From positions 47,120,001-47,184,000 of the forward strand of contig OX597829.1 of the NCBI GenBank assembly GCA_951406725.2: a stretch of DNA of 64,000 nucleotides, written 5' to 3'. The stretch is from Octopus vulgaris (lineage: Eukaryota). Numbering within the stretch: the stretch's first letter is position 1; every line of letters begins with the position of its first letter. A model generated the notes under the pieces. It had not been told where the DNA came from. It did not search any database and was given only the letters and a program-made list of their open reading frames with translations. The position numbers and the translations under genes are program-made. Below are positions 2,661 through 63,617 of the stretch, piece by piece.

Positions 2661-3174
2661 GTATTCGGATGCGTAGCCGCAATGGATTATCAAGGGGGGT
2701 CCTTTGATGATTCATTCCAGTTAAGCATCCATGTGCACATCGAACATCCAATGCTGAGTTGCAAATTACTGGAATGGTGAGATGCTAGTAGGATAAGTAG
2801 GAACAAATGTATGTATATCTATATATATATATATATATATATATATATATATATATATATATATATATATATATGTATGTATGTATGTATGTATGTATGT
2901 ATGTATGTATGTATATATATATGTGTATTTTATGTGTATGTATATATACATACAGATATATGTATATATGCATATATAGACATATATATATATACATATA
3001 TATATATATACATACATATATATGCATATATATAAATATATATATATATACATGCATACACACACACACACACACACACATATATATATAAATATATATA
3101 TGTATTAATATATATATATATATATATATATATATATAAGTGTACAGCCTTATATATCCATTGCGACCGGTCTT

Positions 3175-3251
3175 ACGTATCAGTTTCGCACCAGGTTTTC
3201 GACGGGATGTTAGATAACAGTTCAATTATGTAACCCTGTGCTTTTCAGGGT
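3175..3251 (-). ncRNA. Degenerate hammerhead ribozyme motif inside a fold-back
   Basis: - strand reads CTGAAAA (core with G>A), GCACAGG...CCTGGTGC stem II, GAAA, CTGA, TA. A partial mirrored copy GTGCGAAA...GGTAAG lies on + at 3266-3285. Confidence 0.45.
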
Positions 3252-4537
3252 TACCTAACATCCTAGTGCGAAATCAACCGGTAAGATCGACTATAATTGA
3301 TATATAATACTGTGCTCCTCGATTAACGTACCCACTCCATTGACAAATATTTGAGTGCATATTTTTCTCACTTATACAATACATTCTTAGTCGGAACATA
3401 TATATACACCTATGAGTCTGTGTGTACATGTATGTATTGATATATGCATTTATACACACACACACACACACACACACACACATATATATATATATATATA
3501 TATATATATATATATATATATATATATATATATATATATATAATACATATATATATATATACACGTTTATATATGGTGTGAATATATATATGTTTGTATG
3601 TGTGTGTGGGTATGCATACAAGCGCAAATATATATACGTAAAAACAATGAACAGAAGTACTCAATATCTGTGAGTAAAGTATGTAGACGTAGGTGTGTGT
3701 GTGTGTCTGAAAAGAAAAGTACTCAATATCCGTGTTAGGATTTCTATTAAGCAATTAAGTAATCAAAGGTAAACTGGCTAAAACCATTAGTTTAAGTACT
3801 TGCTGACCGATATGTAAAATATTATGTATGTGTGAGTGCATGCACTTGTATGCAAATGTGTGTGTGTGTGTGTGTGTGTGTGTGTGTGTGTGTGTGTGTG
3901 TGTGTGTATGAATGATTAAAAGAATAATTTACTGCTTCGATAACGGCTCACATAACAGTAATATATATATATATATATATATATATATATATATATATAT
4001 ATATATATATATTAATTACATCCAATAGAATATTTATCAGAAACTGTAGTAAACACGGTTTTCTGCTAATTACTTTAAATCTTGGAGAAACGTTGATAGA
4101 CTAGCTGCTGAGAATGAATATAAATCTCATTGTTGATTAGATTTAATTAGTAAAATATTTTTTTTATAATTCCTCTCATTTAAGCTTTTTCTAGTTACTT
4201 TATAATCGTCAGTTCTAATATAAATTTCAATACACGTGTGTGTATGTGCGTGTGTGTATGTGCGTGTGCGTGTGTGTGCGTGAGTGTGCGTGTGTGTGCG
4301 TGAGTGTGCGTGTGCGTATTTATGTGTGTATGCGCCCGCGTGTGCGTTTGTGTGTATAAAATTCTGTATATCATTCCTGTTTCCCTCCTCCTCTTCTTCT
4401 TTTTCCTCTTTTGTTCTCGTTCTTGTTCTTTTTCTTGTTATTATTATTATTATTATTATTATTATTATTATTGTTGTTGTTGTTGTTGTTGTTGTTGTTG
4501 TTGGGGTTGTTATTATCATTATTATATTTATAATTAA

Positions 4538-4752
4538 GGCGGCGAGCTGGCAGAATCGTTAGCATGCCTGGCGAAATGCTTAGCGGTGTTTCGTCTGCCG
4601 CTGCGTTCTCAGTTCAAATTCTGCCGAGGTCGACTTTGCCTTTCATCTTTCCGGGGTCGATAAATTAAGTACCAGTAAAATACTGGGTTCGATGCAATCG
4701 ACTCATCCGTTGCCCCCCAAAATGACTGCCCTTGTGGCAAAATTTGAAACAA
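4538..4752 (+). mobile_element. tRNA-derived SINE family B
   Basis: Starts GGCGGCGAGCTGGCAGAATCGTTAGCA, has B-box-like GTTCAAATT and central GCCTTTCATC...GGGGTCGATAAATTAAGTACCAG (resembling the Meta-SINE central domain), and ends in an (ATT)n tail. Many copies in the window. Confidence 0.85.
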
Positions 4753-59620: not shown

Positions 59621-62600
59621 GCTATGATAACATAAATGTACTCTACCACACTGCACTCTGTCTTCTCACACTCACCCCAATATAGTATAACACACTTTTA
59701 CACACTAATCCTACGCACTATACGACACAGTTATCACCTACATAAACTGAACATACCACACGCCTCATAGATACATCAGTAAAAACACACACGGAGAAAT
59801 ATATCCATGTGTGTGTATGCTTGTGTGTGCGCGTGTAATGTATACATGTGTATATATGTATGAATTATGGATGTATGTATGTATTGATTGGTTGACTGAT
59901 TGATTGTTTGATTGATTGACTGACTGACTGATTTTCATGAACTTAGATTACTTTATATGCTGTGGAAAATGATACAGCATCAAAGAAGTCAGAACTGTGC
60001 TTTAGTCTTATTTTCAAATTGCCTAAGTTGGATAACATTTTAACCCCATTGCGGAGTTGGGAAAAGAAAGACTCATGAGACGTCAGATGCTGCTACTTTT
60101 CGTGGAATGTGAAGTTCGGTAAAATACTATATGATGTAAAAGCAGTAGAGAGAGGAAGGTTAAATACTCGAAAACATACCATACAAGGCATTGATAAGGA
60201 AGCCATGTGCATAATATAGATTTTTCGGTAAATTTCAGAGCGTATTTCAGCGTAGAGCTTACCGTTTTTATACACTGGAAAAAAATTGCTAATTCTATAA
60301 ATAAAAGCATAAAAGTTAAATATAATTATAAGTAAAGAAAGAAATGGTAGATATTTTCAATTCGACGAAAGTAATTTTTTTTTTCGTGGGGGTTGGTTAC
60401 CATTACGCTATAATAGTATAAATGATGTTACGTTTTAAACACTTTTGACATTACAATGAAAACTTTAACTTTAAGATCAACTGGTCTTTTACAATGTTGC
60501 GACATATTTTCTGTTCCAGTAACATTAATATAGGAACCATCACACACGCACATAAAAGACATATTGGTGCAAACTCATGCACGCACATGTAGATGCATAT
60601 AAAGATACACAAGTATCTACTTGCCTAAATATATGTGTGTGCGAGTGTGCGTGTGTGCGTTTGTGTGTGCGTTTATGTGTGTGTTTGTGTGTGTGTTTCT
60701 GTGTGTGTGTTTGTGTGTGTGTGTGTTTGTGTGAGTGTGTTTCTGTGTGTATCTATATGCACAGTCACATATTTTGGTCTAAATTGAGGTGAAAAGCAGT
60801 AACTCGTATCAACATTACTGGCATTCAACACACGCATACATGTACACGCAGGCACTCTCGCAGACACACACAGACACACATATACACACACACACACATA
60901 CACACATAAATGCACACACAAGCACTCTCACAGATACATACATACACACATACACACATACATGCACACAAAAGCACACACATGTACACTCACAGACACA
61001 CACAAATTCACACACATACACACACACGCACACATGCATGCACACACGCACACACACAAACTCACACACATACACACACATATATATATGTGTGTGTGTG
61101 TATGTGTGTGTTGTAGTGATGATGGGTTTGTAATATTGTCACTTTCTAACTTACAGAATTCTACCCAAATATAGATGACTTACGATAAAAAGCAGTATTT
61201 ATTGCATTGCTTAACGCAGACACTTTGCACTCATCACAAACAAAAGTAGATAATTGAGAGATGGCGTATAGATGTACAGAAATTTCAAATCCGGGCGGTT
61301 GTGTCTACACTGAGCACATTGGGACCGAAATGTTATAAAAAGTCAACATGACGTCACTCTGAGGATGTGTGTGCGATTGTGTGGGTGTGTGCCTGTGTGT
61401 GTGTGTGTGTGTGTGATTTTATATATATATATATATATTATATATGTTTCTTTATATATGTATGCGTTTATATACGTGTGTGTGTGCGTGTGTGTGCATT
61501 TGTGTATGTATACACCTGTTACTAACGAACTGCACGAATTAGTAGTTATCGTAAAAACGGTAATAAAGTGTTCTTTTACCAGAACTTTTCTTAGTTCTCC
61601 GGTACTACAGGTTTCCTATTGACAGAGGTCAACAATTTTGCAAACACAATTCATAATACAAAACTTATTATTATTATATATATATATATAGGTGTATCTG
61701 TATACATAATATGTGCGAAGATGTATATGTACATATATATATATGTATATATATGTATGTATATATGTGTGTGTGTGTATACACTTCTATGTGCGTACCT
61801 GTATAAATTCATTTCTGGCGGAGAAATTCATAAGTCCATATATGTGACGGACATTTAACGTTTGGCGTTTGCTCCTTTGTGTGTGCTCAAATCCTCTGAG
61901 ATCCAAATCATTTTAACTATCTCTGTCTCGCTTAAACGGTAAAAAAGCATACAATATTCACTTTTGACAATTTTTCGGATTATTTTTTTTTTTCATTTTT
62001 TTGTTGGTATAAACAACAATTTTGCATGGATCGCCATCCAAGCGTGAAGCATTATCAACACATTATACAAATCTGTATGTTATTTATACAAACATACTCA
62101 CACAGATATATACATAAAAACGCACATACATGTATGCATGCATATACGTAACCACATGTAAATATATATATATATATATATATATATATATGTATATATA
62201 TATATATATATATATATATATATATATATATATACAAACATGTATATGTATATATGTATATATATGTATATATATATATATACAATCTAAGTAATGAAAT
62301 GTGCTCATACCTTCGTATAGTTCATATACATCCATCCACCCATCTATCCATCCATCCATGCATTTATATATATATATATATATATATATATATATATATA
62401 TATATATATATATATATTGGTATGCATGTACATTTACGTGCATGAGTGATGTGTGAATGACCAAATAAACAATTATATCTAACAAGGTGTATGATTTCTG
62501 ATAGGCAAAGCTTGGTTATGACAATATCTGTAAAACAAAAGAAATGAGAGTTGAACAAGTTGCATGCATATCTATCATATTTTAAATGTGTGTTATTTAT

Positions 62601-63534
62601 GAGTATATATATATAATTATATCTATATGATTACATATATACACATATATACGTGTATGTATATATATATATATATATATATATATATATATATATATAC
62701 ATATACATATATATATATATACATATATGTATATATAAGTATATAAATACATATGTATATATATAATACATATATATTCCTCTATCTTTACTGAGTGCCA
62801 CATGTCTATTCATATGTATATATATATATATATATATATATATATATATATATATATATATATATATGTATATATATATTCATATTTATATATATATATA
62901 TTTATATATTCATATATATAGATATATGTATATATATATATAATTTCATAAAAATATATATATATATATATATATATATATATATATATATATATATATA
63001 TACATATACATATATACATACATACATGTGTACACAAAGATAAATGTACAAATATTTTAATAAACATACATATATATATATATATGCATAGGGCAGATCA
63101 TGTACATAATATAGATGTTTTTCAGCAACTTTCAATGCATTTCTTGGCTTATTTAAGCTTAGTGCTTCTAGGTTTGCATATTGGAAAATGTTGCCAATTG
63201 TATGAATTAAAAATTAATCGCTAAATATAGATAAAAGTAAAGCAAGAGATGTTATATATTAGATTTGAACGGAAATAGTATCATTTTTTTTTTACCTCTT
63301 TACGCTAATATGGATATAATCGGTGTTATATTTAAAGCTCCTTTGGTATAGGCTACGTTAAAGTTCACTTTAAAATGACCGGTTTATTAAATACTGGGAC
63401 TTATTTTATGGACATGAAACATTGATCCAGAAATAAATAAATATATATATATATTATGTATGTATGCATATATATATACATATATAAGTATATGAAAGAA
63501 TGGAGTTGAACGACTAGTTAACAAATATCCTTTA

Positions 63535-63617
63535 TTCTCGACATATGTTTCGAAGGCTGCATATTCCTAATTCCAAAGGAATAAGGAGTACATTATGCAG
63601 ATTTCTCATCAGGAAAA
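63535..63617 (-). ncRNA. Type-I hammerhead ribozyme motif, intact, with long stem II
   Basis: - strand: TTTTC CTGATGA GAAATCTGCATA...TATGCAGCCTTC GAAA CATATG TC GAGAA, overlapped at its 3' end by AATAAA. All core nucleotides are present, stem I is 5 bp and stem III is palindromic. Predicted cleavage between 63540 and 63539. Confidence 0.85.

Follow-up and report, generated by a model that had tools for sequence, protein, structure and literature searches.

Type-I hammerhead ribozymes of metazoans have been described in the pseudo-long terminal repeats (pLTRs) of Penelope-like elements (PLEs), with an absent or palindromic stem III, an extra base after A9, a long stem II and a U3-A8 variant. 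They occur there as many unrelated, mostly solo families, with thousands of motifs per genome and opposite-strand pairs 100-700 bp apart that come from truncated PLEs (Cervera and De la Pena 2014, PMC4209133, main text). Canonical PLEs with a C-terminal endonuclease (EN+), Neptune and Nematis, have a reverse transcriptase (RT) followed by a GIY-YIG endonuclease and show pLTR tandems, 5' truncation, an inverted 5' copy and (TA)n flanks (Craig et al. 2021, PMC8557442, main text). Animal non-LTR retrozymes carry a type-I hammerhead in head-to-tail units that are non-coding and low in GC; their monomers are dispersed, and dependence on PLEs has been proposed (main texts of PMC7229834 and bioRxiv 10.64898/2026.07.22.740005). 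The latter, a 2026 preprint, argues that retrozymes are PLE derivatives. Between them, the repeat families described here show these features, the inverted copy being rare in two of them (14128 and 8545). They were studied from a window of 64,000 nucleotides of Octopus vulgaris (assembly GCA_951406725.2, contig OX597829.1, forward-strand positions 47,120,001 to 47,184,000; 32.6% GC, ~30% simple repeats), in which a sequence-only reading had placed twelve hammerhead motifs and taken them for one class of small self-cleaving elements. We instead read the motifs, with a probability of roughly 85%, as the hammerhead-bearing 3' ends of nine repeat families, of which four would be truncated protein-coding PLEs and three non-coding head-to-tail units likely borrowing Penelope enzymes, most copies being likely inactive fossils (Table 1).

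All twelve motif strings were found in place, and eleven of them belong to nine multi-copy families that hold a minimal type-I hammerhead, in line with the eight to ten families guessed before. Ten query cassettes (paired copies share one query) were compared with 40 scored candidates each, and all ten proved multi-copy, with 40-57 matches among those candidates; first-look candidates numbered 88 to 2,054 per query, which are not copy numbers. The 20-30 best loci were fetched for each query (270 in total, plus one for a site at 14014; L-numbers denote these and other fetched stretches). The majority sequence of eight families has the CUGANGA/GAAA/UH core together with stems I and II, stem III being palindromic or missing. 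Two families carry C at core position 4, and in 9 of 10 families the full motif is restored among the copies. Compensatory changes, which had been named as a check, were seen as swaps in stem III of 47133 (T-A in 15/27 loci, C-G in 11/27) and in stem II of 42502 (C-G in 15/24, G-C in 4/24). No homology between the hammerhead families was found beyond flanking repeats.

Shuffled controls bear on the explanation by chance matches in AT-rich repeat DNA. A descriptor demanding an exact CTGANGA matched 6 times at 5 cores, where 60 local dinucleotide shuffles averaged 0.2 matches (max 2); for a stricter three-core descriptor the figures were 5 matches in the window and 0.06 (max 1) in 100 shuffles. 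Once a single core mismatch was tolerated, the window count (8 matches) was not above the shuffles (2.3 +/- 1.7, max 8), so damaged motifs cannot be judged by descriptor alone and each was judged by its family. Chance does explain two sites, 48167 and a 44268 match of the exact-core and three-core runs that sits in the open reading frame (ORF) of a long interspersed element (LINE). For the other eleven motifs it is contradicted by the family alignments and, given the strict counts, chance as a general account is scarcely credible. Fifteen further CTGANGA sites were compared with the fetched loci and none is a conserved hammerhead repeat, and a light test of 14014(-) for a scrambled-order hammerhead gave one match of one candidate genome-wide and no such hammerhead.

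The genome (2.8 Gb in 227 contigs) was sampled with 100 random 10-kb stretches from 28 large contigs. This random 1 Mb held 36 strict motifs in 26 of the 100 stretches, compared with 0.65-0.70 in 40 shuffles (max 3) and none in the reversed sequence; 5 of the 36 use a core that was added to the descriptor after being seen, leaving 31 without it. Extrapolation gives 87,000-101,000 strict motifs genome-wide (Poisson 59,000-140,000, wider with clustering), and the window's four strict true motifs are within expectation (p 0.14). For five of the nine families the random 1 Mb gave no core match, which implies that the genome holds many more families. Both the PLE/retrozyme link and the large genome-wide number proposed earlier are supported, while the density of about one motif per 5 kb is not: strictly intact motifs occur about once per 30 kb genome-wide, the higher figure arising because it counts the damaged copies of this window. 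In the fetched stretch L352, two identical U3-A8 hammerheads lie at 3284 and 3646, 362 bp apart on one strand, as a retrozyme-like dimer.

Table 1. Hammerhead cassettes and related remnants in the window (positions within the 64,000 nucleotides; motifs are named by the positions of the sequence-only reading, which mark approximately stem I or the cut side).
Feature	Positions	Strand	Details
63535 cassette, candidate 3' pLTR of young autonomous PLE	63487..63650	-	clean hammerhead, core 63612, cut side 63540, stem III CATATG
12702 cassette, candidate 3' pLTR of young Neptune-type PLE	12594..12790	+	U3-A8 core TTGAAAA at 12705, cut side 12736
8545 cassette, candidate 3' pLTR of autonomous PLE	8250..8700	-	core 8624, cut side 8549, long stem II, stem III CGGCCG
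3175 cassette, two-armed remnant	3137..3300	-	damaged core CTGAAAA at 3248, cut side 3174
47133 retrozyme-type non-coding unit	47019..47478	+	core 47137, cut side 47191, period 515-528 bp
46883, inverted arm of 47133 insertion	46869..47012	-	core 46941, cut side 46887
56921 retrozyme-type unit	56672..57200	-	core 56971, cut side 56927, period 453-482 bp
42502 old retrozyme-type unit	42469..42677	+	damaged core TTGATGA at 42505, cut side 42537, period 406-410 bp
42280, old inverted arm of 42502 family	42203..42322	-	damaged core TTGAAGA at 42315
14128 ~230-bp unit	14046..14272	+	core 14132, cut side 14158, zero-loop stem III
51968 fold-back (palindromic) remnant	51915..52090	+	CTGACGA at 51971 is the fold centre, stem I lost
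48167, not a hammerhead; non-LTR retrotransposon ORF fragment	48084..48302	-	downstream of RT domain
Broken C-terminal GIY-YIG endonuclease of PLE	58078..58649	-	E 1.8e-21, same kind as in 63535 and 8545 families
Broken thumb and endonuclease of Neptune-type PLE	58776..59620	+	tblastx E 7e-8 to Neptune-type copy

Judged by their sequences, four families (63535, 12702, 8545 and, weakly, 3175) appear to be 3' pLTRs of autonomous PLEs. The 63535 copies are 92-100% identical, with the core identical in 30/30 loci, and a GIY-YIG-type endonuclease frame ends ~520 nt upstream in sense in 4 of the 30 and inverted in 2 more. The order hammerhead, RT/endonuclease ORF, hammerhead, at a spacing of 3,243 bp, is present in L373, and this is the only family in which a hammerhead pLTR was found on both sides of an ORF. 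A search with the RT part of L373 gave 55 relatives with E below 1e-30, many of them 700-740 amino acids (aa) in length; Octopus sinensis supplies the closest named relatives of a PLE protein from the genome (80% and 70% identity). Copies of the 12702 family are 98-99% identical, and in 7/20 loci (two of which are one duplication) an RT-GIY-YIG ORF, its GIY-YIG part preceded by a CX4CXXC linker, ends 570-1,100 nt upstream. For 8545, 8/25 loci (5 of them independent) have an endonuclease whose end lies 230-290 nt upstream of where the query starts, and an endonuclease remnant lies upstream of 3175 in 1/20 loci (E 4e-4). The 63535 endonuclease is without a cysteine linker; the Neptune and Nematis labels are provisional ones from linker motifs, the 63535/8545/3175 type being presumably Nematis. 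An assignment of the 63535 proteins to Naiad was dropped, the endonuclease being C-terminal in L373-L375; the Naiad clade has an N-terminal endonuclease and is without a canonical hammerhead (PMC8557442, main text).

Two GIY-YIG PLE remnants had been placed at 58050-59620, and both are real. No pLTR hammerhead was found downstream of the 58078-58649 remnant, and no hammerhead downstream of that at 58776-59620. The endonuclease part of the latter is by itself only weakly alignable; for the frame at 59123, an atlas search gave no match, nor did tblastn of its endonuclease.

Three further families (47133/46883, 56921 and 42280/42502) fit animal non-LTR retrozymes by the structure predicted from their sequences. 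The unit's own 3' part stands upstream of the hammerhead on the same strand in 4/27 (47133), 6/20 (56921) and 4/24 (42502) loci after removal of duplicates, and the longest stop-free frames reach 56, 92 and 59 aa, respectively. Inverted arms accompany these units in the window: one at 57084-57200 for 56921, and the 42203..42322 arm, which is 82% identical to 42502-42617. Same-strand second copies in L050, L235 and L156 are partial or old, and no multimer arrays were seen for these three families among the fetched loci. A hammerhead-like string at 56810(+)/57140(-) proved to be the antisense of the 3' part of the 56921 unit. The one sense endonuclease found upstream of 56921 is the 58078-58649 remnant of the window itself, at a distance of 1.0-1.5 kb and separated from the unit by an inverted junction and a microsatellite; we rejected that remnant as the parent, the family's upstream sequence being its own unit.

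It is unlikely, on this evidence, that all motifs are simply truncated ends of autonomous PLEs and the non-coding units partial tandems with unsampled ORF-bearing parents. PLE insertions do form partial tandems (PMC8557442, main text), coverage was limited to 20-55 loci per family and to flanks of 1.5 kb, 2/30 loci of the 14128 family extend 5', and a sister of that family has a Neptune-type endonuclease upstream. Nevertheless, the upstream sequence of 47133, 56921 and 42502 is their own 3' end at a fixed period (14/71 loci), whereas in the four autonomous families it runs into an endonuclease instead.

The two families at 14128 and 51968 are placed neither as PLE ends nor as retrozyme-type units. 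The 14128 unit has (TA)n on both sides, and no head-to-tail repeat, the mark of a retrozyme, was found in its 48 distinct loci. The core reads CCGACGA in 40 of these and CTGACGA in 4, and in four public runs (contigs) C leads at 14133 with 56-83% of summed depth; since the C form dominates the family, the canonical core of the window copy likely arose by a CpG-type change once the copy had been inserted. When the query began 45 nt into the unit, 21/28 loci still started within a 16-nt span, 6 are shorter and 1 is longer, and a longer reference copy stands besides those 28. Among close copies in the random 1 Mb, 4/6 begin at the preferred start and 2 are shorter; the sample also holds one 3' fragment, and a diverged subfamily contributes two arms that reach further 5'. 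The 8 matches per Mb extrapolate to 22,000 copies (Poisson 10,000-44,000). The sister family has full stems and a CTGTNGA core (U for A6), with 5 strict matches per Mb (sites L277:4660-5690, L290:8009, L302:502, L336:1885, L341:9445 and L353:111), and in L277 its Neptune-type endonuclease lies ~0.7-0.8 kb upstream.

One tentative reading, which we hold to be possible and no better than that, sees in the 14128 family a 'Penelope SINE' (short interspersed element), a solo pLTR that propagates itself. The 230-bp unit would be transcribed from its own internal promoter, which would explain its fixed 5' start (as suggested by PMC2377424), a Neptune RT would copy it from an internal start site without an RNA circle, and it would have been amplified to roughly 10,000-40,000 copies although its hammerhead carries the weakening U4C change. 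If true, and with the sister A6U family and ~100,000 hammerheads in view, ribozyme motifs of the octopus would have been kept as an RT structure after relaxed catalysis.

Contrary to its earlier description as intact, 51968 is without stem I and is the centre of a fold-back; the window copy folds as one hairpin (z -5.5). We dropped the idea of an unrelated miniature inverted-repeat transposable element; 4-7 unfolded copies hold the hammerhead. The longer junctions in L114, L115, L119 and L122 carry a 5' strand pairing as stem I together with a CCGACGA-type core, which argues for descent from a hammerhead family. In two families, fold-back junctions are concentrated on the hammerhead's 5' core strand (window positions 3248 and 51971; L162 and L174), and this clustering may mark an RT stop site.

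The labels intact and damaged given to the window copies need revision, only 63535, 12702 and 14128 being clean. The supposedly damaged 12702 has TTGAAAA in 20/20 loci with three stems paired, i.e. the U3-A8 variant described in the main text of PMC4209133. The supposedly intact 8545, 46883 and 47133 each have a post-insertion break against their own family (a C-A closing pair in stem I, A-C at the stem II base and G-G in stem III, respectively); 14128 is clean as labeled, but in a minority form of its family. In the 3175 copy, the 5' strand of stem I is replaced by an inverted plus arm (~3255-3300) cut off in stem II, and the family core CTGAAGA is intact in 10/20 loci. An A-A pair at the stem II base (A after A9, A before GAAA) was observed in the majority sequence of the families with cores at 8624 and 56971. 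The twelfth motif, 48167, was rejected as a hammerhead, as 19/19 other copies are without GAAA (CCGCAAC or a variant). Its stretch lies in frame in the ORF of a non-LTR element, so that the statement that no motif lies in an ORF fails for this one; the element is R4/Dong-like, as we assume from its motifs, and its copies extend both ways.

Insertion shape ties the families together. The 3' ends are fixed (40-350 nt past the cut site), 5' ends are variable and staircase-like, and flanks are AT-rich. An inverted arm within 1 kb upstream was counted in 9/30 loci for 63535, 9/27 for 47133, 9/20 for 56921, 6/20 for 3175, 4/24 for 42502, 3/19 for 12702, 21/24 for 51968 and 1/21 for 8545, compared with 0/20 for the non-PLE family 48167. 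These features are consistent with a mechanism suggested by PMC11167929 and PMC8557442 (main texts), in which the element's GIY-YIG endonuclease would cut AT-rich DNA and the RT would start copying 40-350 nt 3' of the hammerhead and usually stop early. Nearly every insertion would thus keep the hammerhead and lose the ORF, and priming on both cut strands would yield head-to-head arms. In source elements, the hammerhead would cut tandem transcripts either as a dimer via the palindromic stem III, a reaction described as weak in vitro (PMC4209133, PMC6765202, main texts), or with the help of the element's protein. Solo copies have no same-strand partner, and head-to-head arms would fold into long duplexes instead; as no window cassette has such a partner, most are likely silent.

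Several points weigh against this picture. Linkage to PLE ORFs, an expectation of the sequence-only reading, held for the four families described above, but no PLE ORF was found within 1.5 kb upstream of 47133 (0/30 loci), 42502 (0/25), 14128 (0/55) or 51968 (0/25), and the dependence of these four on PLE enzymes therefore rests on insertion shape and literature. The inverted arm of 14128 occurs in just 1/48 loci. Pfam scores of the PLE proteins fall below curated cut-offs, among them GIY-YIG (E 5e-4) and RVT_1 (E 2.5e-3) in the 12702-family ORF. The fetched loci are best-scoring matches and not drawn at random, and cleavage, transcript ends and circles are predicted here from DNA alone. The hammerhead fold z-score is clear for 63535 only (-3.1), with eight others at -1.8 to -0.1, and in one tested PLE hammerhead mutants had no effect on insertion in vitro (PMC11167929, main text).

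Core conservation was compared with flanks as mean identity to the majority base, values that are without correction for CpG decay or alignment edges. The core is above the flanks in 5/6 older families, i.e. 42502 (0.905/0.800), 3175 (0.930/0.841), 56921 (0.955/0.866), 47133 (0.970/0.927) and 8545 (0.939/0.916), and no better kept in 51968 (0.83 vs 0.85); young families are uninformative in this respect. Such conservation, along with the three clean window copies, might be taken as a sign that the host retains dispersed copies as active ribozymes for cutting or terminating its transcripts, which we consider very improbable. The clean copies are the young ones, with 93-99% identity to relatives, and old copies decay, all core positions being kept in only 7/24 (42502) and 3/24 (51968) loci. 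Moreover, minimal hammerheads showed no monomer cleavage (PMC4209133, main text), and core conservation can come from source elements; in our reading it reflects these and not the inserted copies.

Other repeats were noted in the window, where repeat-finder output was dominated by microsatellites. A tandem array of ~250-bp period (5612-7618, units 88-91% identical) holds no hammerhead by our descriptors. The LINE remnant that contains the false 44268 match (43700-46450, minus strand) has an apurinic-type endonuclease (PF03372, E 1.6e-10) and RT-like frames. Two abundant SINE-like families lie at 4533-4750 and 4776-5164, with SINE-like copies at 9372, 9661, 13032, 35344, 36267, 38131, 38884, 42839 and 56250. 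A 183-bp direct duplication (99% identity) occupies 20999-21362, and 1231-1641 and 23370-23879 form a dispersed repeat pair with ~93% identity.

The motif class itself is known, and the octopus families are new members of it. The suspicion that it is under-annotated holds in a narrow sense. Rfam hammerhead families gave no match in the window at gathering score, and the 150 matches listed of 649 from an Rfam e-value scan were microRNA models on microsatellites; the main text of a 2026 octopus repeat annotation is without the words hammerhead, ribozyme and retrozyme. No paper on octopus hammerheads was found among main texts of the literature. For CCGANGA/CUGUNGA cores, these main texts yielded only U4C in a viroid (PMC3088659), and Lunse et al. 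2017 may already cover C4/U6.

Compared with the metazoan pLTR hammerheads, the octopus stem II is longer, reaching 54-57 nt, and C4 cores and the A-A pair at the stem II base were not found in the main text of PMC4209133. The retrozyme-type units measure 410-530 bp vs 220-400 bp in animal retrozymes, and they have minimal hammerheads where published retrozymes have canonical ones, and come as 1-1.5 units with inverted arms (main texts of PMC7229834 and bioRxiv 10.64898/2026.07.22.740005). Poseidon of Anolis shares an internal RT start near the pLTR hammerhead and AT-rich targets, and the cutting and extension of both DNA strands reported for it would explain fixed 3' ends and two-armed insertions; it is, however, of a different clade, and its hammerhead overlaps the ORF start, whereas the RT frame of 63535 is first seen ~0.3 kb downstream (Frangieh et al. 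2024, PMC11167929, main text). In the octopus, autonomous PLE ends and retrozyme-type units stand side by side with the same insertion shape, and young near-intact families (63535, 12702) together with high-copy core variants (U3-A8, C4, U6) offer a natural setting in which to test if PLE spread depends on cleavage by the hammerhead. The estimate of ~100,000 strict motifs is at least ten times the largest counts in the main text of PMC4209133 (~9,000, Xenopus tropicalis). It places the octopus among the animals whose genomes carry very large numbers of hammerheads, which standard RNA-family scans miss, and comes near the figure of up to 120,000 hammerheads given for the axolotl in a preprint's main text (Li, Clavereau and Pollet 2026, bioRxiv 10.64898/2026.07.22.740005).

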